Positions 1,205 to 34,010 of a DNA stretch of 64,000 nt are shown here, piece after piece. Below the pieces are notes generated by a model. It did not search any database. It saw only the letters and a list, made by a program, of their open reading frames with translations, and had not been told where the DNA came from. A program made the position numbers and the translations under genes. Source of the DNA: Candidatus Daviesbacteria bacterium (GTDB lineage: Bacteria; Patescibacteriota; Microgenomatia; Daviesbacterales; UBA10151). Position 1 is the stretch's first letter; every line of letters starts with the position of its first letter. The stretch lies in NCBI GenBank assembly GCA_016187025.1, contig JACPKM010000004.1, positions 228,887 to 292,886 of the forward strand. Direction: 5' to 3'.

Positions 1205-4200
1205 ATGAGAAAAATTAAGCTTGCTGCTACCGTAATCATAATACTTATATTAACAGTTATTTTTTCCATTCAATACCAAAGCCCTGTTTTTGCCCAAAGT
1301 TCATGTGACCCAGCCAACATTGGAACCAACCAATTAGTAGGATGTTTATATAACTGGACAAGCACAAGTAACTACTTTGCAACACTGGATACAGATGCCC
1401 CATCATCTGATATAATTTCCTCTGTAAATACCTCCCAAGTTGTTTTCGGGCACGATTGGGGTATAAGTTCTGCTTCAAGCACAACAGGAGCTGATACTTT
1501 CTCATCCAGATGGAAAGGTAATATTACCTTTCCGCCAGGGACATATAAATTCTATACCAACTCTGATGACGGAACTAGGGTATACCTCGGAGTTGGAAGC
1601 ACTGCAAACATACTTAAAAATAATGGTACTACAGCTTCCTGGTCTGACCATGCAGCAACTTTAAGGTTTGAATCAAACCCTGTTTATATTGGTACCCAAA
1701 CTAACCAGCTTGTTACTTTAGAATTCTATGAGAATACCACGAATGCTTCAATCATATTTGGTTGGGATTATTCCAAGGCTGACCTTTATATACCAGACCT
1801 TTCAGCACCAGGCCCATATTCCAGGGGAGGCAATTATACATTTACTGCTACAGTAACCAATGGGGGCCAGGGCGTATCTCCTGCAGTAAGAGGCAGGTTT
1901 TGTATAGATAACCCAAGTTGCAGCTCAAATACCTCGGGAAGGATAGGCATTGATGACATATTAATTAACAATTTTTCTTCAGGTTTTTCAACAACTATTA
2001 CTTCACCAACCTGGACAGCTACCACAGATTCCCACACTGTGACTTTTTGTGCTGATGTAGCGGGGGTGGTTAATGAGACAGATGAAACAAATAACTGCAG
2101 AACCACTGAATTTATTGTCTTGCAACGCTGCGAACCGAACACAGCTGGAACTAACCAGTTATTAGGTTGTATGTATAGCGGCACTAATTTTAATGCCCTC
2201 AGTATAACTGCACCTGAAGGAATTATACTATCCCCTCCTGCTTCCGCTGTACCTGATTCTGCCCTGGCTATCTCCCGGGACTGGGAGATTAGCCCAAACC
2301 TCACAGGTAGTTTAGGAACAACTGATTTCTCTGCCAGATGGAAAGGTAATTTTTACTTTAAAGCTGGAACTTATCATTTCCGCGGTGGGTCAGATGACGG
2401 TATAAGAGTATATATAGATGGAGTTTTGAAAACCGGAGATTTAGAAGAATGGATAAACAGAAGTTATAGTGAGCATGGCCTTTTTTCTGTCACTTTCGAT
2501 GCACCAGGGTACTACCTGGTAACACTTGAGTATTATCAAGGAACAGGGGGTGCCAAAGTAAAATTGGGTTGGGATAAGGACCAGTCTACCTCTTCCGACC
2601 CGGTTAGTCTTTCTTTTTGTCAATCTAACGAACGGAACGAAGGCTTGATTTCTGCCAAAAGCATTACGGATGAGAGTATTTTTGGTAACCTGAACCAAAT
2701 TTGTGTAGTGGACCCGGAAAAAGCACCCTTTGTCCCTTTTAAAATCCCCAAATATGATGATTTGAAATCAATTTACTTTGACCAGGCTAAACAACCAGCC
2801 TCTTTCACCAAACATGAATCCCTAACAGGTGATAAAAACCACAATGATATTTCAACGGCAGGCAGTACCAGCCATTTGTATCATATAAAAAAAACCACTC
2901 CATTCTCTGCCGATGGTAACCTAAGCATTAGGGGTAATTTTCTAGGTGACCAAACCGGTACTCAAACCAGAGTAGTGTTTGTTGACGGCGATTTAAATAT
3001 AGGCCCTACGCCAAATAACACGTTTAAACATGGGGATGGACAATCGGGCATAGTGTTTGTAGTAAAGGGAGATATAAATATAGACAAGGGTATGGAAGAA
3101 ATTGACGGGGTATATATTTCTGAAGGGAACATATGCACATCCTTTAATGGCATAAGCTGCGATATCGTTGACATCCGGGTCTTTACATCCCAACTAATAG
3201 TCAACGGAAGCCTTATTTCCTTAAACCCGGCAAAGCCTATACAATTCAGAAGAAACTTAATTGATAATACTGAGCCCGGGGAAAAGGTTATTACTCAGGT
3301 AAAATATCTGGTAATCTTAAAAGATATATTTTCAGATACTTTACAAAGATGGTCTGAAATTCCGGCAGATGTGCCGATTCCCGGAAGCCTATGCGGTGCT
3401 GCCAGAACATCCTCGGATTGTCGACAGAGAAGTATATATGGTGCCGGTGCATGCGAATGGAAAGAGTGTAACAGTGGGGTTGTTTCAGCTTGCTGGCCCG
3501 AGGGAACAAGCGACTTAATTGCCTGTCCGCTTTCAGCCACTTGTACAGCCAATTCTACCTTTGTTGGAATAAACCAAGATGTAGTATGGAATATACAGGC
3601 CTCAGGCGGAATTAATACTCCCTATGAATATTTTTGGAATGAAGGCGCGGGTCTGGCAGCAGGCAATCAAACCCTAACCAAAAGATATACAACTACAAAT
3701 GATGCTGTTAATGTTTCAATCAGGGTTGAGCAATCAGGTAGTAGTCAATACGCTACTAATGCCTGTCCTACAGTTTCTGTTGGATGTATGAAGTATGTAG
3801 ATAGTGATGGAGATACTTATGGAGATGAAGATGGAGAGCTGCAACGGATAGATTGCTCTACAGCCGGGTATGTTGCCAATAATACTGACTGTGATGATAG
3901 TAATAATAAAATTTATCAAACTTTATCTACAGCAGCAAGAGATGAAGACAGAGACGGTTACACTCCGGCCGCTGTATCTAATCAATGCGTGGGTGGGACA
4001 TCTGCTATCAGCGGCAGGACTTATTATAAAGATGCAGCAGGCGCTTTTACCTGGTTAGCTGCAGCTTCTACAAGCATAGATTGCTATGATAAAAATGCCA
4101 TTGCTCATCCATATCCATCTGGCAGCAACCCCGCTTACCAGACAGTACGCAGGGGAGGAGCGGCTGTCACCGCCATCTCTACTAATCCTGATTCAGCAAG

Positions 4201-4569: not shown

Positions 4570-5154
4570 GTGAAAATTTTGAGAAAAACTGCTCATTTGC
4601 GGGTTTACCGCAATTTAATCTCTTCAAAGAAACCTTCAGGTTTCACATTAGTTGAACTCTTAGTTGTTATTGCAATTATTGCAGTTCTGGCAGCAGTTAT
4701 TGTGCTCATTATTAACCCTCTTGAGTTAACCAGGAGAAGCAGGGATGCAGCCCGTCTTACAGACCTTTCTAACTTGCAGCAAGCAATTAATGTTGCTGTG
4801 CAGGAGGCTACAACATCCGGTGCAGCTATTCTATGTAAGAGCGCGGGAGCATATCCTTGTAATGGCTCTTCTCATACGGGTACCAGGGCTTCGGATGGTA
4901 CAGGATGGGTTAAAGCTGATCTGAGTGCACAAAAAAGCGTTTCAGTTCCAACATTACCTATTGATCCGATTAACGACACAGCAAAACATTATACATACTG
5001 TGCAGATACTGATGCATGGGAGATCAATACCGCATTAGAGTCGGACCAGCTTAAGGTGAAGATGACCAGTGACGGTGGTGACGAGGATGATAAGTATGAA
5101 GTTGGGTCGAAACTGGATTTAATTATGGCAACCGGAGGATCTTGTACATATTAA
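4570..5154 (+). CDS. Type IV pilin (candidate major pilin), GTG/TTG start
   Basis: Class III signal: KKPSG-FTLVELLVVIAIIAVLAAV (G|FTLVE prepilin cleavage/methylation motif). 4 Cys in C-terminal half. First pilin of the operon. RBS-like AAAGGGGGTG upstream. Confidence 0.7.
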   Translation: MKILRKTAHLRVYRNLISSKKPSGFTLVELLVVIAIIAVLAAVIVLIINPLELTRRSRDAARLTDLSNLQQAINVAVQEATTSGAAILCKSAGAYPCNGSSHTGTRASDGTGWVKADLSAQKSVSVPTLPIDPINDTAKHYTYCADTDAWEINTALESDQLKVKMTSDGGDEDDKYEVGSKLDLIMATGGSCTY

Positions 5155-6050
5155 TGTTTAGTATTTGGTTTGGTTTAATAGTTGGAGCGGTTTTAGGCAG
5201 CTTTATCAAGGCAATTGCTGATAGAAGCTTACAAAACCGCTCCTTTTTTGGCAGGTCAAACTGCCAAAGATGCAATAAAAATATTGCCTGGTATGACCTT
5301 TTTCCTATAATTTCCTTTTTAATCCTTCGGGGTAAATGTAGAAATTGCGGTAAAAACATTGGGAAAGAGTATGTTTTGGTGGAGGTGGTATCAGCAGTAA
5401 TATTTGCCTTTTTTTTCTTCCAAATTTTTAAAACTTTTCCCGGGACGGAAAATTTACTAAAACTTACACTTTTTTTAGCTGATTTAGCTACAAAAACCTT
5501 TTTTATAACTATACTTTTGATTTTAACTATTACAGACCTTAAAAAAATGCTGATTCCTGACCGGGTAATACTCCCCTCTTTGCTTATTCTGGGAGCATTA
5601 CTGGTTCTTTTCACCGGTTATAAAATTTGGTATCTATATTATTCCCTTTCTCAAAACCCAATTGGTCTATATTTACTCCCCCCCCACAGTGATTATTTCA
5701 TCAGGCATGTTTTAGCCATAATAGATCCCCTTAAGTGGTCATTTTTAATGTTAGTTTTAATTTCCGGTTTTTTTATAACGTTAATTTTAATAACTAAAGG
5801 AAAAGGGATGGGGGGCGGTGATGTTAAGCTGGGAGCATTTATGGGCCTTGGTTTGGGGTTTCCAGGTGCACTGGTGGGGATAATGGTTGCCTTTTTTTCA
5901 GGGGCAATAATTTCGCTTTTTTTAATAGCTTTCAGAAAGAAAAGTTTTGGGGAGTCTGTTCCTTTTGGCCCCTTTTTAGTTTTAGGTAGTGTAATTGCCC
6001 TATTTTGGCAAACTGCAATTATTAATTGGTATTTAAACCTTTCGTTTTGA
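5142..6050 (+). CDS. pilD: Prepilin peptidase (A24 family, PilD-like)
   Basis: N-terminal tetracysteine CQRC...CRNC zinc motif, multiple TM helices, GGGDVKLGAFMGLGLGF catalytic-region signature typical of A24 prepilin peptidases. Confidence 0.8.
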   Translation: MYILMFSIWFGLIVGAVLGSFIKAIADRSLQNRSFFGRSNCQRCNKNIAWYDLFPIISFLILRGKCRNCGKNIGKEYVLVEVVSAVIFAFFFFQIFKTFPGTENLLKLTLFLADLATKTFFITILLILTITDLKKMLIPDRVILPSLLILGALLVLFTGYKIWYLYYSLSQNPIGLYLLPPHSDYFIRHVLAIIDPLKWSFLMLVLISGFFITLILITKGKGMGGGDVKLGAFMGLGLGFPGALVGIMVAFFSGAIISLFLIAFRKKSFGESVPFGPFLVLGSVIALFWQTAIINWYLNLSF

Positions 6051-6116: not shown

Positions 6117-6605
6117 ATGAAAAAGTTACTGCCCAAATCCGCAAATAACCCCAAAGGTTTTACTTTAATAGAGCTTTTGGTGGTTATCACAATAATTGCA
6201 ATACTGGCTACAGTAGGGGTGATATCGTACACGAATGTACAAAAGAGAGCCAGGGATGACAGAAGAATACAAGATGTTAACCAGATAATTGCAGCATGGT
6301 TAACTAATACACCTGCAGGTGGGCAACCAGGAGCTCTTGATGCCACCTGGTTTGCAAACGGCCAGGTTCCTACGGATCCTATGACCGGTCAGATGAAATG
6401 TGGAACAAATAATACTGCTACATGTAAATACTGTTTGAGAACAAATGCAGATTTTTGCTCTGCACCAGATGAAGATGGGAATGGGGGTGATACTGAGGTA
6501 ATCGATGAGATGAATCCAACAGTTCCTTTGACTGTTTGTGCAAATATGGAAAATGATATCAAAACCGGAACTGCTATAACTAGATATTATTGTAAGTCTA
6601 TATAA
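6117..6605 (+). CDS. Type IV pilin/pseudopilin
   Basis: NPKG-FTLIELLVVITIIAILATVGV prepilin N-terminus. Start chosen at ATG 6117 rather than upstream GTG 6096. Confidence 0.65.
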   Translation: MKKLLPKSANNPKGFTLIELLVVITIIAILATVGVISYTNVQKRARDDRRIQDVNQIIAAWLTNTPAGGQPGALDATWFANGQVPTDPMTGQMKCGTNNTATCKYCLRTNADFCSAPDEDGNGGDTEVIDEMNPTVPLTVCANMENDIKTGTAITRYYCKSI

Positions 6606-17799: not shown

Positions 17800-19818
17800 C
17801 TAGTCAGGCATTACTTCTTTTGCCAAACTGGATAATTTTGCCTGAAGGGGTGGATATTTGTCAAGCGTAGGATCATCAGACAAAATATTTTTTGCAGCCT
17901 CCCTTGTTTTTTCAATTAATGTCAGATCAGAAAATGAGGCTATTTTTAAATCAAACCTGCCTGATTGTCTGGTGCCAAAAATTTCCCCTGCTCCCCTAAT
18001 TTTTAAATCTAGTTCTGCCAATTTTAATCCATCATCAATTTTTTCTAGGTTTTTTAGCCTGCTTATGGCTGATGAGTCAGAGCCTTCAGTAAAAAGCAAA
18101 CAATAAGATTGCTTCTCACCTCTGCCTACCCTGCCTCTTAGCTGATGCAGTTGTGCCAAACCAAACCTTTCAGCAGACTCTATTACCATGATTGTGGCAT
18201 TTGTTACATCAACCCCTACTTCGACAACGGAGGTGGCAACCAGGATATCTATTTTTTTATCTTTAAAACCGTTTAACACTTGCTCCTTCTCTTTTGATTT
18301 TAGTCTTCCATGTAAAATTCCAAGTTTTAGATCAGAAAAAACTTGCTTTTGTAGTTTTTCATACTCATAAGTTGCAGCTTTTGCCGAGGTTAAGGTTTCT
18401 GAAAGCTCAATTAAGGGGGTAATTATGTAAGCCTGATCACCGTCTTTAACTTTTTTTCTGATAAACTCATATGCATCAGTTCGTTTTTTTGATGGAACCA
18501 CATGAGTATTTATCTTTTTCCGGCCTTTTGGCAGCTCATCTATTACTGAGATATCCAAATCTCCATATAAAGTTAAGGCAACAGTCCTTGGAATGGGTGT
18601 AGCAGTAGTTGTTAAAAAATGGGGTAGTTTGCCCCTGCTTCTCAAAACCGTTCTCTGCCCTACCCCAAACCTTTGCTGCTCATCTATGATGACTAAACCT
18701 ACATCTTCGGTAATTAATTTATCTGAGAGTAAAGCATGGGTGCCGATTATCACATCTCCTTTTTCAGATTTTCTGCTTCCTGTATAAATTCCAACTTTGA
18801 TCCCCATTGGCTCAAGCAGTCTTGAAACAGTAGACAGATGCTGAAAAGCCAAAACCTCAGTAGGAGCCATAAAAAGAGTTTTGAGGCTGTTTAAATAAGT
18901 TACATACATAATCACAGCTGCAACAACAGTTTTACCAGAGCCTACCTCGCCTTGTATCAGCCGGTTCATCGGTTGGTTTCTCCCCAAATCATTTAGAACA
19001 TCTTTTATTACTCTTTTTTGAGCAGAGGTTAGCTCAAATGGCAGCCCTTTTATAAACTTTTCTACTTTTTTTATATTGGGGTTTAAAGGTTTGGTAGCAG
19101 GTTTATTTTTCCAGCTCAACCTCATCTTTTGGGTTGCCAGCTGAATATAGAAAAGCTCATCAAAGCCGAGTCTCTCTTTTGCTTTTTGCACATCTTCATA
19201 ATTTTTTGGAAAATGTATTTTGGAAATTGCATCATCTAAATCAAGCATGCTATCTTTAACCTCCTTTGGCAAAGGATCACTGATTTGCTCTTTCACCTTG
19301 GGAAGCATTTGAGAGATTTTTGCTCTTAACCATTTCGAAGTCAGCCCATAAGTTTCAGGATAAACAGGAACCAGTCTGCCAGTATGTAAGGTTGTAGTGG
19401 GTAGTGAGTAGGTTTCAGGTAACTTCTCCCAAACAGGGGCAACTATAGAGATTTTATTTTTGTATTTGCTCACTTTGCCTGAAACCTGTAACCTGTCACC
19501 TGTTTTTATCTGTTTTGTGAGCCAGCTTTGGTGAAACCAGGTTAACTCAATAGGACTGGTGCCATCATTAAAAATTGCCTGAGTAATGATTTTTCTTGAT
19601 CTGGTGAAGATGTTTCTAATTGACCAAATTTCGCCCTGTAAGGTCACTTTTTCACCTACTTTAGCATCTAAAGCACTAGATACATTGGAAAAATCATCAT
19701 ACCTAAAAGGGAAATGATAAATTAGATCTTCCAGAGTATAAAGGTTTAGCCTCTCTAGCTTTTTTGCAGTTGTGTACCCGATTCCTGATATTTGACTTAG
19801 CTGAAGCTTTAAATCCAT
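17800..19818 (-). CDS. recG: ATP-dependent DNA helicase RecG
   Basis: N-terminal wedge domain, Walker A GEVGSGKTVVA, DEQQRFGV (DExH), motif VI QLHQLRGRVGRG. 672 aa. Confidence 0.9.
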   Translation of the reverse strand: MDLKLQLSQISGIGYTTAKKLERLNLYTLEDLIYHFPFRYDDFSNVSSALDAKVGEKVTLQGEIWSIRNIFTRSRKIITQAIFNDGTSPIELTWFHQSWLTKQIKTGDRLQVSGKVSKYKNKISIVAPVWEKLPETYSLPTTTLHTGRLVPVYPETYGLTSKWLRAKISQMLPKVKEQISDPLPKEVKDSMLDLDDAISKIHFPKNYEDVQKAKERLGFDELFYIQLATQKMRLSWKNKPATKPLNPNIKKVEKFIKGLPFELTSAQKRVIKDVLNDLGRNQPMNRLIQGEVGSGKTVVAAVIMYVTYLNSLKTLFMAPTEVLAFQHLSTVSRLLEPMGIKVGIYTGSRKSEKGDVIIGTHALLSDKLITEDVGLVIIDEQQRFGVGQRTVLRSRGKLPHFLTTTATPIPRTVALTLYGDLDISVIDELPKGRKKINTHVVPSKKRTDAYEFIRKKVKDGDQAYIITPLIELSETLTSAKAATYEYEKLQKQVFSDLKLGILHGRLKSKEKEQVLNGFKDKKIDILVATSVVEVGVDVTNATIMVIESAERFGLAQLHQLRGRVGRGEKQSYCLLFTEGSDSSAISRLKNLEKIDDGLKLAELDLKIRGAGEIFGTRQSGRFDLKIASFSDLTLIEKTREAAKNILSDDPTLDKYPPLQAKLSSLAKEVMPD

Positions 19819-19955
19819 TACGGGGATATTTTACTATAGATTGGTTTGCTACGGGGTTACTAATAACTAAACAAGCTAGTAATTCGGGTTTTATTTGGTA
19901 TAAACTGGAGTAAGCAGTTGATGCTATAATTCGAGCAAAGCGAGAATCCTAAAAT

Positions 19956-20350
19956 ATGCTTCCCAATAGAGTTTATTGTTATGTTGATGAAAGTGGCCAA
20001 GATACTGAAGGTGAAATCTTTCTATACTAACAATTGCTAAAACAGTTTTTGCCATTAAAGACTATAAAGAGCACAGATTTATTGTTTTAGTAGATGGGTT
20101 AGGTAAAAAGGATCAAAAATATTATGGTTCAGAGCTTAGAAAACTTGGTGTTCCCTCAAGGGAGGTAAAAGGAGTAACGAGAGATCAAAGTGATGCCTTA
20201 ATAAGGCTTGCTGATAGCATAGCTGGTTTTGTTAGAGATGTAATTGAGAGTAAAGATAAGGATAAGCAGAGCTTGCAAGATAAATCTTTTAAAAAGCTTG
20301 AATCGCTTTTTGAAAAGGCGGTTGATGATAACATACTGGTTGAGGTTTAG
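19956..20350 (+). pseudogene. Frameshifted/truncated DUF3800-family remnant
   Basis: Frame 1 MLPNRVYCYVDESGQDTEGEIFLY then stop at 20028-20030. Out-of-frame continuation ...IVLVDGLGKK...DALIRLADSIAGFVRDV...*. YVDESG N-terminal and LADxxAG C-terminal motifs match DUF3800 but total length is under 60% of typical. Confidence 0.45.
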
Positions 20351-20353
20351 GCC

Positions 20354-20379
20354 ATAAAAAACCCCCTATTGCTAGGGGG
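20354..20379 (-). terminator. Rho-independent terminator (minus strand)
   Basis: Perfect 7-bp stem CCCCCTA/TAGGGGG with 4-nt loop (20362-20379), preceded on + strand by ATAAAAAA, i.e. a U-tract after the stem on the minus strand. Downstream of the island operon/recG fragment. Confidence 0.5.
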
Positions 20380-20498
20380 AGCAGCCTAGTCCTTCGATTT
20401 CTCTCAGAACAGCTCACCTGTACGATTAGTCTTCGGCTGAACTTTAAATAAATCCTACCACAAAACTTTATCTTTGTCAAAAAAAACATTCTTTTGTG

Positions 20499-20720
20499 TT
20501 AAGCGAAGTTTAAATTTCTAATTGACCAAATTTCGCCCTGTAAGGTCACTTTTTCACCTACTTTAGCACCTAAAGCACTAGATACATTGGAAAAATCATC
20601 ATACCTAAAAGGAAAATGATAAATCAAATCCTCAATAGTGTTTAAACTAAAGAAGCTTAGTTTATAGGCAAGGAATGATCCGATACCTGAGATTTGAATT
20701 AGAGTAGTTTTGAGATCCAT
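20499..20720 (-). pseudogene. Duplicated 5' fragment of recG (codons 1-~70), truncated
   Basis: Encodes MDLKTTLIQISGIG...EDLIYHFPFRYDDFSNVSSALGAKVGEKVTLQGEIWSIRN then stop. nt 20516-~20632 are near-identical (1-2 mismatches in ~115 nt) to recG nt 19614-~19730. More 5' part diverged. Confidence 0.6.
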
Positions 20721-20756
20721 GAAGATGTATTTTACTACTATTATCTTAATAGACTA

Positions 20757-22670
20757 TCAGGTGTTCTTGACTTTTTTGAAGTCAAAAGCTAGTTTCTTAC
20801 CTTGAGTAATCTGAAAACCAGATACTTCCCATCCAGGAGTTTTTTCTGTGAGCTTTTCTTTAATAATTCTATTTAAATTGGCAACATAACCTTCTATCTC
20901 TCCCCTTTTTAATTCAGCAATTCCTAAGTTTCCTACATGATGATTTTTAACACTTACTCCTCCTGAAGAATCATTTACAAGTTCAACATCAAATGTCGTA
21001 TCTACATTTACAGTTCCAAAAAAGGTTTTTTTCTCTGCATGGACTCCAGCAGAAATAGCCAGTCCTCCTTCAGGCGTAAACTGGTATTGAGGATTTAAGA
21101 TGCGACCATTTGCTGGAAGTGGTAACGTTTTAACATAATCTACAAGTCTGTCAACTCCTGCAACAATTCTTTGTCTTTCAGATCTACTTCCTCTTAATGT
21201 TTCGTTTAATTGATCTATCAGAGATACTCCTGGTTTAGGAGTAATTTCTGTGGTATGTACTTGTGGAACAGCAGGTTTTTCGCTCTTAGTTGGTGGAAAA
21301 GATGGACCCTTGTTTTCTGATATTACAGGTTTTGGTTGTAGATTATTGCTTGGCCTCAATATTACTGCGGGAGATAAGGTTAGTCCGTAGTATCTAATTA
21401 TATCCTGAACGGATTTATATACAGCTCGACCAATACTTGGATCAACAATTTGCACTTCTAAGTTTCCATCACTTGTTCTTCTTACTCTACGTCCAGGTAA
21501 TATAAAGCCTATTCGTCCTGTTTCAACACCTCTTGGACCAATAGTACAGTCATTAATAGGTAAAATTGCTACTGCTCCTTCTTCAACGTTTTGAAGTATA
21601 TCTGCAAGGGAGTTTGTTTCTCTAAATCTTATCTCAGGTGCTTGTAAAGATAATGCGGAAAGTAACTCCTTTATACTTCCACCTCTTTGATGCTCCGTAG
21701 CATATCTACTACCTCCAAGTGCTGCGATCAAAGCACCTTCAGCATGTCTAGAGTGATTAAACCCTTCTCCTAGAAGATGTCTTATAGCATTTTCAGCTGA
21801 AGCAAACACAGAGCTGTCCATTCCAAAAGGATCTGCCTGCGTTCTAATATTTCGTACAGGTTGAGGTTCACGTAAATGCATTAATCTTGGATATCTTTGC
21901 CTGACATCCTTCTCAGCTTCGCGAAACCTCATGAGAGTTTTATCATCAAAATTAAATCCTCTTTCTCTTGCTTCATTCCCCATCCTTGCAAGTTCATTTT
22001 CTAGAACCCTATCAAGTACCCTCCCTGAGTTTGGTGATCCAGAAGGAGTTTTAGTGTCTTTTTTTCCTTCTTTTTGTAATATTCTGGCTTGTTTTAGATA
22101 TACCCACTGTGAACCATAAATTACTGTGGCTGCCTCATCTATTGACTTTGCATATTCTGACTTTACTTTTTCTCTATCTTGAGGTTTATTAGCCTGCTCA
22201 ATTGTCTTTAAAAATCTTTGTGACATTTTTTCAAATTCTAAAGCTGTAGGATAATCTCTTGCTACTCTGTATATATCTCTTGGTACCAGCTGATTTTCTT
22301 GAGTAATATCTCCTCTTCTGGTGGCAAATGAGACCACTCTTCTTAAATGTCTATGGTCTGCATCTTCTCCTTTGAATCTATCAAATACAGCCACTGGATT
22401 TTCTCTATCAGATTGAGCATCAACAGGAGTGGGAATAACAGCTAACAGTTGTCTTAAATCTTTATCACCTATACTACCTGATACCAGTCCTTGATGGTAC
22501 TTATCTTTCTCATCAGTAGTTACATCTACTTTATCCAAAAGTACCAATCTTGGATTTCCTCTGACAATTGAGGCTACTATTTTATTTTGACGTCTAATAT
22601 TAGGGATAGGTTCTTGTTGGGCAACCATTAATGAAGCTGATATTTCAGATGAGTGTTCTGTACTTGCCAT
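20757..22670 (-). CDS. Lineage-specific protein: N-terminal shared domain A (~190 aa) + unique C-terminal region
   Basis: Residues ~25-215 (RRQNKIVASIVRGNPRLVLLD...YGSQWVYLKQARILQKEGKKDT) are paralogous to the N-terminus of 24237..25565 and the C-terminus of 25735..27741. Start set at MAS (22670). No signal peptide. Confidence 0.6.
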   Translation of the reverse strand: MASTEHSSEISASLMVAQQEPIPNIRRQNKIVASIVRGNPRLVLLDKVDVTTDEKDKYHQGLVSGSIGDKDLRQLLAVIPTPVDAQSDRENPVAVFDRFKGEDADHRHLRRVVSFATRRGDITQENQLVPRDIYRVARDYPTALEFEKMSQRFLKTIEQANKPQDREKVKSEYAKSIDEAATVIYGSQWVYLKQARILQKEGKKDTKTPSGSPNSGRVLDRVLENELARMGNEARERGFNFDDKTLMRFREAEKDVRQRYPRLMHLREPQPVRNIRTQADPFGMDSSVFASAENAIRHLLGEGFNHSRHAEGALIAALGGSRYATEHQRGGSIKELLSALSLQAPEIRFRETNSLADILQNVEEGAVAILPINDCTIGPRGVETGRIGFILPGRRVRRTSDGNLEVQIVDPSIGRAVYKSVQDIIRYYGLTLSPAVILRPSNNLQPKPVISENKGPSFPPTKSEKPAVPQVHTTEITPKPGVSLIDQLNETLRGSRSERQRIVAGVDRLVDYVKTLPLPANGRILNPQYQFTPEGGLAISAGVHAEKKTFFGTVNVDTTFDVELVNDSSGGVSVKNHHVGNLGIAELKRGEIEGYVANLNRIIKEKLTEKTPGWEVSGFQITQGKKLAFDFKKVKNT

Positions 22671-22779
22671 AATTATGTATTTTAACATAAATTATAGGAT
22701 AGATCTATCTAGTTAAGAACAAAACCTAACCAATATCAAACCTATAACACTTGACAAAAGGGCATTCATATTCAAGCTC

Positions 22780-24236: not shown

Positions 24237-25565
24237 TTATCTTAATTTAGGTAATCTTATACCTAAGAATTTAGATCTTGCCGGTTTTGGCGATAAATCT
24301 AAAAGAATCTTTGCGCAGTAGCTTAAAGCTAATAATTTACCATTTATCTCAGGTGTTGGAGCATAGCCCCTCCTACCTACATTTTGTGTATATTCATAGA
24401 TATCTTTATAAACTTCTCTGTCAGCAAAAGGCTTGGTCCTGGGATGCTGCATCCTGGAATTAATATGGTTAACAATTAAGTTTGCAAGACTCGCCTTTTG
24501 GCTTATTGTAAGAGTAGTATCTCTAAGAAAGGTTGAAGACAAATGTTGATAGACTCTACGAACCAGATCTGATGATAAATTAGTTAAATTTCTGGCAACA
24601 TTGGGCCAATCTGAGGCCAGGCCTTGAAAAATAAAGGTTAACTCTGGATTGGAAAGAGCTGTAAAATTTCTTCTATTTTCTTCTGTGTCGAAAAATAATG
24701 GCCTGGAAAAATAAAGTCCTAATTTTACCCGAAGCAATGAACGTTGTTCTGGTGTTAGACTCATAGTTTGAGTTGTGTGATCCACAAGCGATTCAATCAT
24801 GGAAGCTACAGTTGTAGCTTCTGCAGGTTGAAGGTCGGGAACCGGGTTTATATTTACTATGTCTGCTTCAGCGGGTTTTAAGACTATCTCGACATCTGGT
24901 GCTGCAACAACTTTTACCTTGGCTGCTTCAGTGTCTTTCCTTCCTTCTTTTTGTAATATTCTAGCTTGTTTGAGATAAGTCCATTGGCCGGCATAAATAG
25001 CTTGTCCGATAGTATCAAGTGTACCGATATACTCTAGCCTAACTTTTTCTCTATCTTCTGGCCTGTTTGCTTCTGAAACAGCTTTTAGTACTTGTGGAAT
25101 TACTTGTTCAAAATCTAAAGCAGTAGGTAGTTTTTCAGTTACGGCATAAAGATCTGATGCTTTGATTTGGTCTTGTGGAGTGATGCTTCCTCTGGTAATA
25201 AAGGCTACCGCTCTTCTCATGTGTCGTTGTTGGAAACCATCTCCCTCAAATCTTGCAAACAAATGTACTGGATTTCTACTATCTGGTGCAGCTTGAACAG
25301 CTGTCGGTAATATGGATACAGCTTTTTTAAAGTCTATTGCAGCTATAGTTCCTTCTCTAATACCTTTGGCAAAGTTTGCTCTTTCATAATCGCTTATTGG
25401 TACTACATCAGGTAATAGTAAACGGGGATTGCCGCGCAATACAGCTGCAATTATTTTATCTTGTCTTCTTGGATTAGGCTCTAGTCTTTCAGGGGGTAAT
25501 AAAGTTATTGAAGAGCTATCAGTTCCTAAAGGATTAGATGAATTACTTTCTGCTGCCTCTGCCAT
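24237..25565 (-). CDS. Lineage-specific protein: N-terminal shared domain A + unique C-terminal region
   Basis: RRQDKIIAAVLRGNPRLLLPD...YAGQWTYLKQARILQKEGRKDT domain A (aa ~30-215). C-terminal 220 aa unrelated to 20757 gene. Start 3 nt after LCP gene stop. Confidence 0.6.
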   Translation of the reverse strand: MAEAAESNSSNPLGTDSSSITLLPPERLEPNPRRQDKIIAAVLRGNPRLLLPDVVPISDYERANFAKGIREGTIAAIDFKKAVSILPTAVQAAPDSRNPVHLFARFEGDGFQQRHMRRAVAFITRGSITPQDQIKASDLYAVTEKLPTALDFEQVIPQVLKAVSEANRPEDREKVRLEYIGTLDTIGQAIYAGQWTYLKQARILQKEGRKDTEAAKVKVVAAPDVEIVLKPAEADIVNINPVPDLQPAEATTVASMIESLVDHTTQTMSLTPEQRSLLRVKLGLYFSRPLFFDTEENRRNFTALSNPELTFIFQGLASDWPNVARNLTNLSSDLVRRVYQHLSSTFLRDTTLTISQKASLANLIVNHINSRMQHPRTKPFADREVYKDIYEYTQNVGRRGYAPTPEINGKLLALSYCAKILLDLSPKPARSKFLGIRLPKLR

Positions 25566-27779: not shown

Positions 27780-30700
27780 CTATTTGAGTTGATTATAGGC
27801 GTTAGATAAATCTATTAACATTTGATCAGTAGTTTGGTATCTATTTCTTGGTTCTGGATCAAGCCCCTTAATAAATATTCTTTTAATACTATCAGGTATG
27901 TTTGCTGGAATTTCAAATCTTCCATTCGTATGGGCTTCATATTCTCTTTCTAGTAATCTTTGCGTTGATTCACCTTTAAATCTTGGAACATTAAATGGGA
28001 AATTACCAGTCATTAACTTATATAGCAATACTGTTAATTCATAGGTATCGCAGCTTAAAGTAACATTAGGGTTTTCTCTAAAAAGTTCTGGAGGTCTAAT
28101 ATGTCTATTTCCTCCTACAAACCCTCTCCTAAATTTCCCCCCGGTACCTTTAATGCTACCTGCATCAAAGTCGATTATTTTTATACCTTGCTCGCCCAGT
28201 AGGATATTAGAAAGTGCAATATCAAGATGTACAATACCTGCATTATGAAGCTCTCTTATAGTTTCTGCAATTTTTATAGTAGTAGCAATTGCTTGCTGGG
28301 GTGGTAAAGACCTATTTGTCGCAAAGTAATGCTCTAAATCAGTATTTTGAAGTGGATAAATTTTAATGATTTCGTCACCGTTATCAATTTCATCTATAAA
28401 AGTACCAAATGTAGGGCTTGTTGTTTGTGCCTTGATTATTGTTTCTAGATCTTTTACTCCATCTGGATAACGATTTGCTTTTGCAATGTATTCTCTTTCA
28501 CTCTTTTTTACCCTTTTAAACGACAAAATCTGTCCAGTTGTTTTATTGTATCCTGCAACAATTTGTCCCATTTGACCTGATCCTAAAGGTTTATCTAAAC
28601 AAACCACATAATCACCAAATTCTTGAATTTGCGTGCTCTCCTTTAGCTTTTCTAGATCATACTTTGGAGCAGTTGTTGTAGGTATAACTACTGGGTTTTC
28701 CTTATTAAACTGATCCAAAGCGTTATCCGCTTCTGCTTTTTCTGCTAACTCACGTTCTTTTCTTGTGATATCCAAGTTTTCTAGTTCTTTTTGGAATTCA
28801 TCCTCAAGTCTGGTAAGCTCAGCCAAAGTTTCTGGAGTTCCTTTACCTGCTTTTATATCTCTGAGTAATACTCCAATCTTTTGATAGTGTTTTAATCCTC
28901 TAACTAAAACATCCATATTTATTATAACCACATTACCATTTACTACTTTGTACTGGATTCCCGACCATCGTAGTGCACGTTGGTAATATTCAGAGTCCTT
29001 GCCAAGTCTTTCGCCATGTTCGTAAATATCAAGTGTTTTATTAATAACTGTCTCCAATCCTTCTTTGAATTTAGCAAGTTGAGCGGGATCATCGTAATTA
29101 ATATTTTCTCCTTCCCCAAGTTGCATTCTTCTGATTTCATCATCGAAGGCACTGAATTCTTTTTGCCATTGATCTAAAGGAACAATTCCATCCTTGATTG
29201 CGGCTATGGCTCGTCTGGCTGATGTGTATAGCCTGGATACTCTTGTTCCCGCGAAGGTAACTCTTTTATGGTCCTGTCGACCTTCAATAATTCCCCAGCC
29301 AATCGCAATATCTTCCCCGCCTTCAGAACCTGGTAAATAACCACCAATAGCAGCATAAATACTTCCACGAAACGCAAAGTTTGCTCCACTTGAAGGCATT
29401 CGCCCGCTGCGGTGGCGACCAATTACGGCTAAATTCTGAAACAAACGCGTACCAATATGTAATAGTGGATATTTAATATAAGCTTCCGGATCCCAATCGA
29501 GTTGACCCAGCATTCCATCTACTTGCGGGTTTTGTTCAAACTTCTGAATGAAGTTACTTAAATATGTTGGAGCAATACCTTTGTTATCTGCATCGTTACT
29601 TATTAAGATTATATCTTCTGCTTTAGGACCTCTCTGATATTGCCTAAAAAGTGCAATATCATTTAAATACTTTCTGATAGTGCCAATGTTTGCCTGCTTT
29701 ATAGGGAGCGCTTTAACTACCACTCTAATAGGCACATCAGGATGATCTTTTCTAAATCGTTCTATTTCTGATAAGGTGTTATCGGGTTTGACTGGTTCTC
29801 CTTGTTTATCAGTTTGTGGGTAATTTACAAAAAGCAAGATCTCATATTGGTCCTTAGAAGCATCCTGAGGTAGATAATTTGCCAAAGAGTTATAAATATT
29901 TCCTCCTTCTTGATGTCCTGCTACCGGAATACAAACTATAGCCTTTAAGTTCACCGAAGGTTCTTCTTTAATCTGTCCTGTTAACTGTTTTATTTCTTGA
30001 TAATATGCTGGATTCTGCTTTTCAAAATACATCTGTGCTTCTTGGTATGAATTTAGTTTTGCATTGGGGTTTTGCTTTAATGTTTTAGATCTATTTTTTG
30101 CTAAGATTTTCAAAATTTCCTCTCTTGGCCTGCCTCCATAAAGAGAGCCAGGAGGTATAAGTCTTTCTTCAAATGGTAGAGGGTGATATGGGGCAAAAGG
30201 GGTTGCCCAGAGCTTATCTGCAGGTATTTCTGCTGGTAAAGGTGGGATATATTTAATTGCTTCAGGCGGGGTAAGCTTAAACCCTTCGTGAGGCGGTCTG
30301 GGCTCAGGAATAGGAATTGCCTCCCCCGGAATAGTAGTTGGAATCTTTTGAACTTCCCCCGGACCAACTGTTGTTGAAAGTATAGTTCTTACCATGGATC
30401 CATCCGGCCTTTTTTCAACATGCGCAACCTCAATAAATTCTACATTCTGAAAGTTTCCCCATTTGTTCCTAATGGGATTTCCATTTTGATCCAGATTAAA
30501 TAAAGCTTTTGTTAAAGGAGAGTTAGCATCTAAATTAAGTTTTCCCTGCATAAGCTCCGGATGGGTTTGGGCATTAATTACCACTACTTGTCTTGCCTCA
30601 TCAGCTGCATGATCAGGAGTAATTAAAATCTCAAAATTTCGATAACCATTTTGAGAAATATCTTTTGCAAGCCTGCCGTATTGTGAATCAATGGAAAAAT

Positions 30701-33700
30701 CCCAGTTTACCCCTCTTTTTCCATCAGGCAGAAGCTGTGATCTCATCTGGGAAAAGTCCAGCTCAACTTGTCCATCTTTTACCCTGTGATGAAATTGCAG
30801 TTCTTTGCCGTCTATTCCAATTATATTGCCAGTATCCTTACTGCCTGCTGGTCTGCCGTCAGCAAATCTTCTTATGGTGTCGTTATCATGCCAAAGATCA
30901 CGTCTGGCCCGGTCTACCTCCCCAATTTCTTTATGTTCTCTTATAAAACCAAAAAAATCTTTATCAACAATCTTATCGGGACTTTTCTCATATCTTATTC
31001 CAGGAGGTGTTTCAAATTGCTTAGACTCAATTGCCCATCCTTCTGTTTTGAGCCTGGATTGGACACTGTCCCAGTTAACATTTGCATTAGCCGGATCCTG
31101 CGGGTCAAAAGACAAAGCTCCTTCCTGGTCAAAATGGCCCACAATCCAAGCATTATCAGGGCTTTTTATATCAGGGTTACCCAGAAAAATAGAAACAGAG
31201 CCACGGTCTTTGTTCAAATCCACAATTGAGCTTCCGTGGATAAAAGTTAAGTCCTGCTCCGGTGAGCTGGCAAAATTCTTAATCTTTTGATGAATATTAA
31301 AATCAGGGTTATCATAGATTTCTCTTGTCCATCCTGTATCAGTTACTAAATTTTTAATTTTTGGATCAAGGCTGGCTTCAGCTCCTGAAATAACCAGTGA
31401 GCCTTCTGAGGTAACCCTCACCGGAGGACCGGCAATTGTCTGCCCGGTAGCCCTGTCTATAAAATGTGCATTGTGCCCATTATCCGCTCCATAGTTTGTT
31501 GCTAAAGTCAGATCATTGTTAAGGTCGTAATTTTTAGGATTATCAAAAGTTTGTTTGAAAGTATCCCTTGCTAATCCAGGTGCTCTTGTAGGTGTCCACC
31601 TGGTTTCAAAAAAGCCCCTTCCATCCATCATGTTTTGAACACCCCTGACAGCCAGTCCTCCTGCAAATCCTAAGGTAGATGCAAAAATTGTTGCTCCAGC
31701 TGCCTGGCGGACTCTGTAGTTTCTTGCTGCTCCATTTTTTGCTCTTTTGTCATCACTGATTTCCTGGTCAACAACATCAAATTGCTCTGACAGTAAAGTA
31801 TTAAGTTGTGCCGCATCTGTAATCTGGGACCTTAACTTTTGCTCAAGCCTTGCTGCAGCATCAACCAACTGAGCAACTTCCTGATCTGCTAAAACATAAT
31901 TTTTACCGTAAGTTATATACTCACTTTTTTCTCTTCTTCCTCTAATAAGTCTTACTCTAATTTCCTGCATTCTTCTTGCTACTTCTTGCTGGTTGGTCGT
32001 GTTGGATAAATCCAATGTGAGTAATTGATCAACTCCCGCTTGGAGATGATTTTGACCTCCGCCATCAAGCAGTTGCTTTGCAGAAAAGGTTTGGTAGCGG
32101 GATCTTTCCATATCCCGCCTTCTTTCTGTACCACGCAGTCTTCCCCATAGCCCTCCATTTGCCTGCATATCAGGTACTGTTCCACCTAAAGCAACCTCTG
32201 CTGCATGCATTTTTTGCTGATGTGCGACCTCTCCTAGTCTTCTTAACCCTACAACTCCTCCTCCTGCAACCGCACCAAGAATTAATCCTCCTAATGGTCC
32301 TGCTAAAGCTGTGCCTCCAACTACAGCGCCTATCCTCACCCCGCCATTTGCAGCTTTTAGCAGCCCATCTGCCCCCAGCGAAACCGCTGCTCCCACAAAC
32401 AGAGGGTTTAGAATTGTTCCTGCCAGCAGACTGTCGCCGCCCTTTACTAAACTTTCAGCCCGTCTTCTTCTTGCCCAGGCAACAGTTTTATCTGTGGCTG
32501 TGAGGTTTTCGGTATTACCGGCAAATCTTGCATTTGCAAGCCTTATGGTGACATAAGCATCAATTTGGTCAGCTCCTTCCTGGTGTTTTGCCAGATTATC
32601 TTTGAGCTTTAGCCCCATTTCCAAAAGATCTGTTGCAAAATAATCAGCAATCTGCCCAAAACTTTCAGCTTGATTACCAAATAGTTGCCTGATTAAAGGA
32701 TTATCCATATTGTTTTGGACAAACTGAGTTAACTGCCTTCTAACATCTTCTTTTCTTTGTCTAATTTCAGCTTCATTTTGAGGAACATTACCAGTAACAA
32801 TAGGGGTAAGGATGTCTTTAATAATTTTGCCTCTTAAGTCATTTTGTTCAGGAGTGTTTTTATCTAGTGTAATAATTTGCTCTCCATTTAGAGTTTGATT
32901 TGCTTTTAATCTGCCCAACACTGCTTGCTGTTGCGCATCGGTACTGTGTCTTAGATCATTTAGTCTTTGTGCAGCTTCTTGAGAGAGGCCTCTCACTGGA
33001 GAGCCATCAAAAAATGATTTTCTCATCTTTTCGTACATTAGATTAACCGCTCCACCTCTGCCGAGTCTTACTCCTATCATTGAGGGAATTCTCCAAATAT
33101 CCCTCCAGCCTTTAAACTTCAAAAACTTTTCTACCTCTTTTTGTGCGTCCAGGTGCAAAACTTTTTCAATAACGTCTGTATTTCTGGTAATATTTATTTC
33201 AACCTCTCTTTGTTCTGGCTGAGAAGATGGAGATGGTTCTACTCCTGGTCTTCCTGGGGTGTCAACAGGTGCAGGAGCTGCAGCAGGTGCGCCGCCTGGA
33301 GCAGAAGCTGCAGGAGCTGGGGAGGGGGCAGCAGGCTGTTTGACAGGTTGCAGAGTATCTGGATCAACCAGCTCCCTTCTTGCCTCCAATGCAGGCTTGG
33401 CAACCTCAAGCCAGTCTTTATCTGGTTCTCCTCTTTTTCTGGAATCCTGATATGCAAAATACGCCTCTTGTTGTAAACGGGCTTTAAATTGTGGACTTGA
33501 TTCATCGTGAGCATCAGGATGCACCTCTTTATAAGCCTTACTGCTTGCTTTTAAAACTTTAATTGCATTTTGAATTTTCTTCCTCTCATTTTTATTAGTT
33601 GTAAAAAGAGCTTCCTCGTTTAACAGTTCAAGAAGCCCGTCAATCGGAACACCCTCACTTTGGCTGAAAGCTTGCCCTGTTTGGGGATCTGTAAAGTTGT

Positions 33701-34010
33701 TTGTAAAACTAAACCCGCCCTTTGCGATATCAGCTTTATTTTTAGGATCAGGTTGATTGCTGCTATCCGGGTGGGGTGCAAAAGCGCCTTGGATAGCTTC
33801 ATAAGCATGTCTTGCCTTGTTTATCTTACCTGTTTGATTGGGGTCTGCAAGCAAACTTGGGTTATTTAAAAGCCCCTCAATTTTTGTTAGTCCAAAACGT
33901 AGAGCATTTTTGACTTGTTGCCGGCTAGGAATTTCCGGGGTGTTAATTTTACCAGGATGACTTTCTATATCTTGAACTGAGACAGGGTTTTCTGTTGGTT
34001 GGCCGTTCAT
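27780..34010 (-). CDS. Giant (2076 aa) multidomain protein: Pro/Ala-rich linker, glycine-zipper hydrophobic segments, GT-A-like domain, C-terminal Ser/Thr protein kinase-like domain
   Basis: Pro/Ala-rich aa ~221-267 (nt ~33210-33350, locally GC-rich). Gly-rich hydrophobic aa ~528-589 and ~769-790 (GAAVSLGADGLL...GAVAGGGVVGL). GT-A-like aa ~1355-1580 (AIVCIPVAGHQEGGNI; ILISNDADN DxD). Pro-rich linker aa ~1222-1290. Kinase aa ~1795-2076: LGSGQMGQIV G-loop, LSFKRVKK, HNAGIVHLDIALSNILL catalytic loop, IIDFDAG (DFG-like). Confidence 0.7.
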   Translation of the reverse strand: MNGQPTENPVSVQDIESHPGKINTPEIPSRQQVKNALRFGLTKIEGLLNNPSLLADPNQTGKINKARHAYEAIQGAFAPHPDSSNQPDPKNKADIAKGGFSFTNNFTDPQTGQAFSQSEGVPIDGLLELLNEEALFTTNKNERKKIQNAIKVLKASSKAYKEVHPDAHDESSPQFKARLQQEAYFAYQDSRKRGEPDKDWLEVAKPALEARRELVDPDTLQPVKQPAAPSPAPAASAPGGAPAAAPAPVDTPGRPGVEPSPSSQPEQREVEINITRNTDVIEKVLHLDAQKEVEKFLKFKGWRDIWRIPSMIGVRLGRGGAVNLMYEKMRKSFFDGSPVRGLSQEAAQRLNDLRHSTDAQQQAVLGRLKANQTLNGEQIITLDKNTPEQNDLRGKIIKDILTPIVTGNVPQNEAEIRQRKEDVRRQLTQFVQNNMDNPLIRQLFGNQAESFGQIADYFATDLLEMGLKLKDNLAKHQEGADQIDAYVTIRLANARFAGNTENLTATDKTVAWARRRRAESLVKGGDSLLAGTILNPLFVGAAVSLGADGLLKAANGGVRIGAVVGGTALAGPLGGLILGAVAGGGVVGLRRLGEVAHQQKMHAAEVALGGTVPDMQANGGLWGRLRGTERRRDMERSRYQTFSAKQLLDGGGQNHLQAGVDQLLTLDLSNTTNQQEVARRMQEIRVRLIRGRREKSEYITYGKNYVLADQEVAQLVDAAARLEQKLRSQITDAAQLNTLLSEQFDVVDQEISDDKRAKNGAARNYRVRQAAGATIFASTLGFAGGLAVRGVQNMMDGRGFFETRWTPTRAPGLARDTFKQTFDNPKNYDLNNDLTLATNYGADNGHNAHFIDRATGQTIAGPPVRVTSEGSLVISGAEASLDPKIKNLVTDTGWTREIYDNPDFNIHQKIKNFASSPEQDLTFIHGSSIVDLNKDRGSVSIFLGNPDIKSPDNAWIVGHFDQEGALSFDPQDPANANVNWDSVQSRLKTEGWAIESKQFETPPGIRYEKSPDKIVDKDFFGFIREHKEIGEVDRARRDLWHDNDTIRRFADGRPAGSKDTGNIIGIDGKELQFHHRVKDGQVELDFSQMRSQLLPDGKRGVNWDFSIDSQYGRLAKDISQNGYRNFEILITPDHAADEARQVVVINAQTHPELMQGKLNLDANSPLTKALFNLDQNGNPIRNKWGNFQNVEFIEVAHVEKRPDGSMVRTILSTTVGPGEVQKIPTTIPGEAIPIPEPRPPHEGFKLTPPEAIKYIPPLPAEIPADKLWATPFAPYHPLPFEERLIPPGSLYGGRPREEILKILAKNRSKTLKQNPNAKLNSYQEAQMYFEKQNPAYYQEIKQLTGQIKEEPSVNLKAIVCIPVAGHQEGGNIYNSLANYLPQDASKDQYEILLFVNYPQTDKQGEPVKPDNTLSEIERFRKDHPDVPIRVVVKALPIKQANIGTIRKYLNDIALFRQYQRGPKAEDIILISNDADNKGIAPTYLSNFIQKFEQNPQVDGMLGQLDWDPEAYIKYPLLHIGTRLFQNLAVIGRHRSGRMPSSGANFAFRGSIYAAIGGYLPGSEGGEDIAIGWGIIEGRQDHKRVTFAGTRVSRLYTSARRAIAAIKDGIVPLDQWQKEFSAFDDEIRRMQLGEGENINYDDPAQLAKFKEGLETVINKTLDIYEHGERLGKDSEYYQRALRWSGIQYKVVNGNVVIINMDVLVRGLKHYQKIGVLLRDIKAGKGTPETLAELTRLEDEFQKELENLDITRKERELAEKAEADNALDQFNKENPVVIPTTTAPKYDLEKLKESTQIQEFGDYVVCLDKPLGSGQMGQIVAGYNKTTGQILSFKRVKKSEREYIAKANRYPDGVKDLETIIKAQTTSPTFGTFIDEIDNGDEIIKIYPLQNTDLEHYFATNRSLPPQQAIATTIKIAETIRELHNAGIVHLDIALSNILLGEQGIKIIDFDAGSIKGTGGKFRRGFVGGNRHIRPPELFRENPNVTLSCDTYELTVLLYKLMTGNFPFNVPRFKGESTQRLLEREYEAHTNGRFEIPANIPDSIKRIFIKGLDPEPRNRYQTTDQMLIDLSNAYNQLK

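Follow-up and report, generated by a model that had tools for sequence, protein, structure and literature searches.

Integrating elements can replace the end of the gene into which they insert, as phage 21 and e14 do in icd of Escherichia coli. Homology-facilitated illegitimate recombination during natural transformation, reportedly described by de Vries and Wackernagel in 2002, usually deletes recipient DNA in its classical form. The locus analysed here shares features with both processes. It occupies positions 19,819 to 20,756 of a 64,000-nucleotide stretch of Candidatus Daviesbacteria bacterium (assembly GCA_016187025.1, contig JACPKM010000004.1, forward-strand positions 228,887 to 292,886), referred to below as the window. 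A complete recG gene is accompanied there by an orphaned second copy of its start, and the two are separated by a DUF3800 pseudogene and a gene for a small structured RNA. The locus is a well-resolved but essentially ordinary recombination scar, which does not overturn current understanding; that the scar was left by an additive (duplicative) recombination at the recG start has, in our estimate, about an even chance of being correct. It offers a base-resolved example of accessory DNA entering a streamlined genome of the Candidate Phyla Radiation beside an essential repair gene without destroying recG.

Weinberg et al. (2017) described 11 DUF3800-associated RNA motifs of unknown function, among them DUF3800-IX (Rfam RF02968) and several of them with terminators (PMC5737381). 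The DUF3800 protein has been modelled with an RNase H-like fold and has been reported in frequent association with mobile elements and defence loci (PMC10910872, PMC13594972).

The DUF3800-RNA module of the window belongs to an already known type of gene-RNA pair, within a subfamily beyond the reach of the Rfam model. With DUF3800-IX (RF02968) the RNA shares the same three-way junction of P1, a P2 hairpin and a P3 hairpin, and the consensus elements of that motif are present: a closing helix of 5 bp, the CCGAA junction, two hairpins, the first of which has a GUAU-type loop, and UAGG ahead of the closing strand. In both, a Rho-independent terminator follows the RNA, a DUF3800 gene is closely adjacent, and the function is unknown. 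The window copy and its subfamily differ from DUF3800-IX in falling under the Rfam threshold (36.8 bits) and in a P2 that has a 5-nt loop and a conserved purine-purine mismatch; in the window, moreover, only the RNA gene looks intact, its protein partner being a pseudogene.

As in the icd cases, the target gene would have stayed complete by means of a diverged incoming end, the displaced end being orphaned across the insert. In the window, however, the 5' end and not the 3' end is concerned, the insert measures 0.9 kb and carries no integrase, and it has no attachment core in common with other module insertions. With Campbell-type integration and homology-facilitated illegitimate recombination the locus shares a single homologous anchor (recG codons 30-68 onward), a single non-homologous joint (20514/20515) and an additive outcome in which the anchor is duplicated; unlike the classical form of the second of these processes, it duplicates rather than deletes.

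Two starts of recG

The features of the locus are listed in Table 1. As a preliminary description of this DNA had stated, recG is intact: its product, 100% identical to the NCBI protein P0115 ('RecG, Candidatus Daviesbacteria'), combines the complete RecG domain set in one polypeptide, namely the wedge domain (RecG_wedge, 71.3 bits), the motor formed by DEAD (76.7 bits) and Helicase_C (67.4 bits), and the RecG C-terminal domain (RecG_dom3_C, 45.3 bits), all above the Pfam cut-offs. The second copy of about the first 70 recG codons, also recognised in that description, is present as a 73-codon open reading frame (ORF) matching only the first 69 residues of the wedge domain (RecG_wedge, 23.6 bits). 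Codons 1-29 of this orphan represent a divergent allele, its codons 30-68 hardly differ from those of the intact gene, and the last four codons and the stop are derived from the adjoining spacer.

Table 1. Features of the recG locus and its DUF3800-RNA module (window positions; L001 and L002 are the closest known copies of the module; aa, amino acids)
Feature	Position	Strand	Evidence or remark
Intact recG, 672 aa	17800-19818	minus	ORF and Pfam domains
Left repeat copy (recG codons 1-68 and about 18 nt upstream)	19613-19836	minus	Core 19613-19722, transition zone 19723-19737
Unique 40-nt spacer, from recG upstream region to conserved module	19837-19876		Unaligned to L001/L002, outside the repeat
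Conserved upstream (promoter) region of DUF3800 gene	19877-19955	plus	Conserved with L001 and L002 upstream of intact DUF3800
DUF3800 pseudogene	19956-20350	plus	Three-frame translation, alignment to intact relatives
DUF3800-IX-like small-RNA gene, about 90 nt	20354-20444	minus	Covariance model, promoter, terminator
Intrinsic terminator of small RNA	20356-20379	minus	Hairpin CCCCCUAGCAAUAGGGGG then U6 (stem 20362-20379)
Sigma-70-type promoter of small RNA	20452-20480	minus	TTGACA, 17-nt spacer, TAGGAT, TG before second hexamer; 10/12 matches
Unique 26-nt spacer	20489-20514		Non-homologous joint with recG core at 20514/20515
Orphan recG 5' fragment, 73-codon ORF	20499-20720	minus	ORF, repeat alignment, RecG_wedge match; repeat copy spans 20515-20738
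643-aa ORF	20757-22688	minus	Ends 36 nt before orphan ATG

The two copies form a direct repeat with a spacing of 902 nt, for which a repeat finder gave 94% identity over 125 nt (19613-19737 against 20515-20639). Base-by-base alignment resolved it into a core with 108 of 110 nt identical (19613-19722 against 20515-20624), five further mismatches up to 19737, and a region past 19738 with an identity of only about 55%, where some 45% of positions are mismatched as far as the ATG and for about 18 nt upstream of it. The similarity was thus neither shorter nor poorer than it had been read by eye, and the pattern originally noted, a near-identical 3' part against diverged 5' codons, stood up to the self-comparison. 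The gene-internal edge of the repeat is abrupt, similarity ending at 19613/20515 after codon 68. A blastn E value of 7e-53 for the whole repeat, and exactly two sites in the window for a 45-nt core probe, against none expected from shuffles, exclude an origin by chance. At its other end, the recG homology between the window and its nearest relative (locus L165) likewise begins at 19836.

Of the 87 nt in codons 1-29, 39 differ between the copies, the proportion of differing synonymous sites (pS) being 0.66 and that of non-synonymous sites (pN) 0.38 (pN/pS about 0.6); over codons 30-70 the values are 0.22 and 0.03. In the core (117 nt) recG of other Daviesbacteria is 57-79% identical to either copy, and that of L165 about 84%; because these genes are far less identical there, the 98% identity of the two copies points to recent common descent and not to constraint. 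The N-terminus of the intact protein (GIGYTTAKKLERLNLYTL) shares 24 of 29 residues with P0116, the nearest known RecG. That of the orphan (GIGSFLAYKLSFFSLNTI) matches P0116 at only 14 of 29 positions and comes closest to P0204 (20 of 29), which represents the common Daviesbacteria type, and it has a few unique radical changes, such as SFFS where relatives have SRLN.

Since synonymous sites are saturated and the N-terminal types differ, the two starts are different alleles on one shared backbone, joined at about codon 30, and the switch from near-identity to divergence at that point is a real recombination breakpoint. The first description had supposed that recG was regenerated. A complete recG was indeed kept, but its supposedly regenerated end is the lineage-typical one, the odd allele being the orphan beside the accessory ORF.

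A recent acquisition of the recG 5' end from a donor resembling P0116 was also considered and rejected, as sliding-window identity to L165 revealed no clear recombination tract; the identity peak in the core is uninformative in this respect, because this segment is more conserved than any other part of recG in all relatives.

The DUF3800 pseudogene and its RNA gene

The segment between the repeats holds the DUF3800 pseudogene and the RNA gene only. The N-terminal piece of the pseudogene (19956-20030) lies in a frame encoding MLPNRVYCYVDESGQDTEGEIFLY, 24 codons followed by a stop, and the C-terminal 108 residues lie in a second frame, open to the stop at 20348-20350. Against intact relatives of 190-201 aa the remnant is without about 70 central codons (211 nt), with the joint at 20021/20022, and this loss also shifts the frame. 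The gene had been described as broken by a frameshift; it is broken and its frame is shifted, but the cause is the internal deletion. As about 70 central codons are missing from the alignment to intact homologues, the remnant is classified as a deletion pseudogene and not as a simple frameshift.

The merged 132-aa remnant has 114 homologues of about 190-200 aa, which come mostly from Microgenomates-type metagenomes and most of which carry PF12686. The remnant itself scores 14.4 bits against this family, under the gathering cut-off of 21, compared with 22.9-30.6 bits for intact relatives, and it had no Pfam match at E <= 0.01. BLASTP identities to the remnant are 74% for P0001, 77% for P0002, 50% for P0006 and 47% for P0033, proteins whose PF12686 scores are 24.9, 22.9, 30.6 and 29.9 bits, respectively, all above the cut-off. 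An N-terminal YVDESGQD motif and a C-terminal RLAD motif are kept in the remnant. PADLOC returned one weak match only, to DUF3800_VII (E = 5e-4), in one relative. The conserved region upstream of the pseudogene (19877-19955) contained no promoter passing a simple promoter scan.

The module is a conserved, portable unit. At the nucleotide level it is 80-83% identical to its closest copies, L001 and L002, both of which lie in unrelated contexts without flanking repeats. In these three copies the 140 nt located 3' of DUF3800 are conserved better than the coding sequence, and they contain a small-RNA gene convergent with the pseudogene; conservation with L001 and L002 ends just past the first promoter hexamer and an A-run. 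The intrinsic terminator previously reported between the two recG copies is present, but it belongs to this overlooked minus-strand gene.

A three-copy profile was applied to 80 metagenome loci fetched with the DUF3800 alignment, in most of which it detected the RNA directly after DUF3800 and always on the opposite strand. A covariance model was built from 30 copies of other subtypes, leaving out the window copy and its closest subtypes. On the 64-kb window this model gave a sole significant match, of full length, to the RNA gene (68.2 bits, E = 4.7e-17). In about 73 of the 80 metagenome loci the model detects the RNA, which directly follows the 3' end of DUF3800 and is encoded on the other strand; the window, L001 and L002 show the same placement.

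An alignment of 48 copies gives a three-way junction composed of P1 (CAGCC/GGCUG), the P2 hairpin and the P3 hairpin, followed by the terminator hairpin. The closing helix P1 is paired in 100% of cells and includes three covarying pairs, and the terminator hairpin covaries across the family. P2 is partly supported, with its purine-purine mismatch conserved, and P3 is a variable hairpin, often with a GNRA loop. A TTGACA-17-TATAAT promoter is kept at the same position in the family alignment. The P3 hairpin of the window copy (CUGUUCUGAGAGAAAUCGAAGGACUAG) is longer than in its closest relatives (for example GAUAGAGAAAUCUAUC in L001), and its second promoter hexamer is TAGGAT, compared with TAGTAT or TATAAT in other copies.

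At the gathering threshold Rfam identified two tRNAs only in the whole window and no DUF3800-IX match in 20 related loci, and a permissive scan of 19800-20800 produced no credible family and no DUF3800-family match at E <= 10. The subtype represented by L159 matches RF02968 with 26.2 bits (E = 7e-4), which is below the family cut-off; its Rfam alignment displays the DUF3800-IX architecture together with CCGAA, the GUAU loop and UAGG. Rfam finds nothing for the window copy, and its RNA is linked to DUF3800-IX only through this relative. The survey of module loci extends the DUF3800-IX-like RNA to about 75 further loci beyond the Rfam model.

In the RNA gene the promoter, the terminator and every conserved nucleotide are preserved, although its DUF3800 partner is dead. 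Judged from sequence, this RNA gene appears to be functional, whereas the DUF3800 protein is lost. The locus thus provides a member of the DUF3800/structured-RNA group in a datable context, with the protein gene dead and the RNA gene kept. Of added interest are the lack of a working protein partner for this DUF3800-IX-like RNA gene and the similar stub duplications at other modules, described below.

Related recG loci and other modules

The recG neighbourhood was compared with 80 recG loci from GTDB species-representative genomes, covering 6 kb around the gene. In none of the 80 do DUF3800, the RNA or another recG start occur within 6 kb of the gene; the best relatives among them, all Daviesbacteria-like, have 70-72% protein identity. 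The nearest RecG among 5.8 billion proteins, P0116, is 76% identical. Its locus, L165, shares the synteny downstream of recG (rpmF, nusB, acpP, rnc, rpsP, KH, trmD), and upstream of recG are LytR and an 84-aa ORF; the module, the 643-aa ORF and a second recG start are all absent. The association of recG with the module is evidently not a general one. A true empty site was not found among the 80 loci and L165, none of which exceeds 76% protein identity, because synteny upstream of recG is not maintained across the group.

The preliminary description had envisaged an ancestral recG directly following the accessory block, and had suggested a comparison with related genomes for an uninterrupted junction of this kind. 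No such junction occurs in the 80 loci or in L165 and no relative has recG after the 643-aa ORF, so that the proposal goes back to the 36-nt spacing only. The 643-aa protein belongs to no Pfam or NCBIfam family, and a homologue search returned only the protein itself at E <= 1e-10; it therefore provides no donor context.

The flanks of the modules were compared in the metagenome loci, where direct repeats were present in 13 loci and inverted repeats in none. Direct repeats within 300 nt flank 6 of 51 modules, compared with 0 of 316 random positions in recG loci and 0 of 216 positions elsewhere in the same module loci (Fisher p = 4e-5 or less). About one tenth of the modules are thus flanked by duplicated stubs of neighbouring sequence, which hints at how modules move.

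At L087 the module lies between two copies (1674-1800 and 2510-2636) of the last 42 codons of the neighbouring gene, a plus-strand gene of 552 aa with a penicillin-binding-protein 3' end. The left copy is continuous with the gene, and the other is orphaned beyond the RNA promoter. The copies are 73% identical at the nucleotide level (pS 0.77, pN 0.14), both are open to the same stop and both end in TAATG, and in the left copy the ATG of this motif overlaps as the start codon of DUF3800. With both reading frames open and such values of pS and pN, they are two functional alleles and not a decayed target duplication. The layout is the same as in the window, and this points to recombination of an additive kind assisted by homology, not to transposition or to duplication in place.

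The repeats of different modules are unrelated and have no common core, being derived from a gene end at L087 and intergenic at L128, L137 and L090. Their right edge lies consistently 7-27 nt past the RNA promoter, and their left edge 0-158 nt upstream of the DUF3800 start codon. Inspection of five loci by eye revealed no terminal repeats, no formal search having been made, and a shared junction motif was not seen either. RNA-guided targeting was rejected, as the longest match between RNA and repeat was no better than with shuffled RNA.

Several module loci show additional features. Two DUF3800 genes and/or two RNA copies occur in tandem at L124 (3109-4730), L110 (2389-4700), L123, L158 and L121, and the second module of L110 abuts a tRNA gene at 4698-4769. 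A HEARO RNA (RF02033, 109 bits) is located at 5606-5861 of L097, about 1 kb downstream of the module, which suggests surroundings rich in mobile elements for this module. At L128 the module lies between two PIN/RHH-like toxin-antitoxin pairs (3208-3857 and 5183-5614), assigned by eye from translations, and a 62-nt sequence recurs at 3908-3969 and 4713-4774, and in part at 5625-5646 and 6367-6407.

Origin of the arrangement

In an additive recombination at the recG start, the incoming DNA would have come from a related Daviesbacteria strain or lineage and would have carried the module, made up of DUF3800 and its convergent RNA gene, and an adjoining recG stub. The conserved recG codons 30-68 would have served as the homologous anchor for joining the chromosome, and a single non-homologous joint would have been formed at 20514/20515. 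The outcome would be two recG-upstream haplotypes in series. The first would comprise the 643-aa ORF with its own recG start, now the orphan, and the second the module with the other recG start, running into the complete gene. The 110-nt core would then be the shared backbone, and the first 29 codons the two recG alleles. Later, DUF3800 would have lost 211 nt and died, the RNA gene remaining complete. This order of events is the one we infer; either haplotype may have been the resident one, and the incoming DNA may have been circular, as in Campbell-type integration, or linear, as in homology-facilitated illegitimate recombination. The first description had also placed a recombination at the recG 5' end, and the scar, with a complete recG beside an orphan, agrees with this; what entered, however, is a DUF3800-RNA module and not anonymous DNA.

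Some observations weigh against additive recombination. Neither a donor-like genome with the module beside recG nor a same-species genome with an empty site was found, the nearest RecG being only 76% identical. The model needs parental haplotypes almost identical past codon 30 and 45% different upstream, and such a pair implies an earlier exchange ending at the same place. The arrangement, moreover, rests on assemblies. Finally, the repeat enrichment is heterogeneous: tandem modules (L124) account for two of the six repeat-flanked cases, and non-coding multi-copy sequences (L128, L160) for some other flanking repeats.

An in-place tandem duplication of the recG start combined with insertion of the module is an unlikely alternative, in which the first 29 codons of the orphan would have decayed and the core would have been kept by repeated gene conversion. 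It would account for the direct orientation of copies 902 nt apart and for their conversion-like pattern of identity, and the radical, lineage-unique residues of the orphan (SFFS for SRLN) are such as a decaying copy would show. However, codons 1-29 are saturated at synonymous sites with a pN/pS of about 0.6, next to a tract with 2% divergence, and the N-terminus of the orphan is of the common Daviesbacteria type (20 of 29 to P0204) rather than a scrambled version of the resident one; in the analogous pair at L087, both copies are under clear purifying selection. A gene-conversion-like pattern had been noted from the sequence, but a reading as a duplicate and its decayed copy homogenised by gene conversion is not supported by these values and the different N-terminal types.

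Somewhat less probable again is the remnant of a site-specific integrative element that would have inserted at the recG 5' region and supplied a replacement gene start, the 110-nt core being the attachment identity and the integrase having been lost. The replaced gene end, the retention of the displaced fragment and the sharp outer edge of the identity block would fit such an element. The segment is only 0.9 kb long, however, and holds DUF3800 and the RNA alone. No recombinase was found inside the repeat-bounded segment or among the neighbours tested (LytR, ORFs without known function, a kinase-containing giant protein, TrpRS and ATP synthase genes), not every ORF of the window having been scanned. 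The repeats at other modules share no core, and the RNA pattern and the DUF3800 subfamily are absent from 2.9 million viral contigs.

The source is a metagenome-assembled genome, the repeat divides two different recG-upstream haplotypes, and a second assembly breaks within the repeat. A chimeric or mis-joined contig made of two co-occurring strain haplotypes that share the recG core would produce these features, but such an artefact is improbable. Simple haplotype switching could not produce the joint of core and spacer at 20514/20515, which must exist in reads, and the copies differ at two core positions. In the independent Logan assembly of run SRR12113383 (L167), an exact match extends from 22731 to 20593 (2139 nt, 0 mismatches) and confirms the junction of the 643-aa ORF with the orphan; it ends inside the repeat, as is usual when an assembler meets one. 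A contig obtained by a look-up with rpmF starts inside the 3' end of recG and is uninformative on the repeat, and exact-protein look-ups with recG and with the orphan peptide gave no match.

The DUF3800-RNA modules may be semi-autonomous cassettes that spread among Patescibacteria together with a gene stub from their last neighbour and insert again, additively, at the end of the homologous gene, perhaps with the RNase H-like DUF3800 and the RNA taking part in joining, or they may form a pair resembling a toxin and an RNA antitoxin. We regard this as a speculative idea with little probability; toxin and RNA-antitoxin behaviour would explain why the RNA gene has outlived the protein gene here.

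A module acting as a mobile element that makes target-site duplications of 60-230 nt, possibly RNA-guided, is very improbable: direct repeats are indeed much commoner beside modules than at control positions, in several loci their start is 7-27 nt away from the RNA promoter, and DUF3800 has an RNase H-like fold (PMC10910872), but the flanking copies are diverged alleles evolved under selection and not decayed identical duplicates, only about 10% of modules have such repeats, terminal repeats and a shared junction motif were not seen, and RNA-repeat complementarity does not exceed chance.

Genes around the locus

The terminator of the RNA now sits between the upstream operon and recG. Because it would cut off read-through from that operon, recG probably depends on a start site within 19819-19955; a simple promoter scan found none in this interval.

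The 643-aa ORF and a 442-aa ORF (24237-25565, minus strand) are paralogous over their N-terminal 185 or so aa (47% identity, E = 1e-56), and the last 180 or so aa of the 643-aa protein resemble the C-terminus of a 1934-aa protein encoded in L165. Parts of a 2076-aa ORF of the window (27780-34010, minus strand), which has a C-terminal Ser/Thr protein kinase domain, are similar to the same 1934-aa protein, located at the equivalent position in L165. Positions 1-1000 of the window have a GC content of 53.5%, compared with about 35-44% across the rest; this stretch is overlapped by a 268-aa ORF (389-1195) belonging to no Pfam family, and Rfam detects no RNA there at the gathering threshold.

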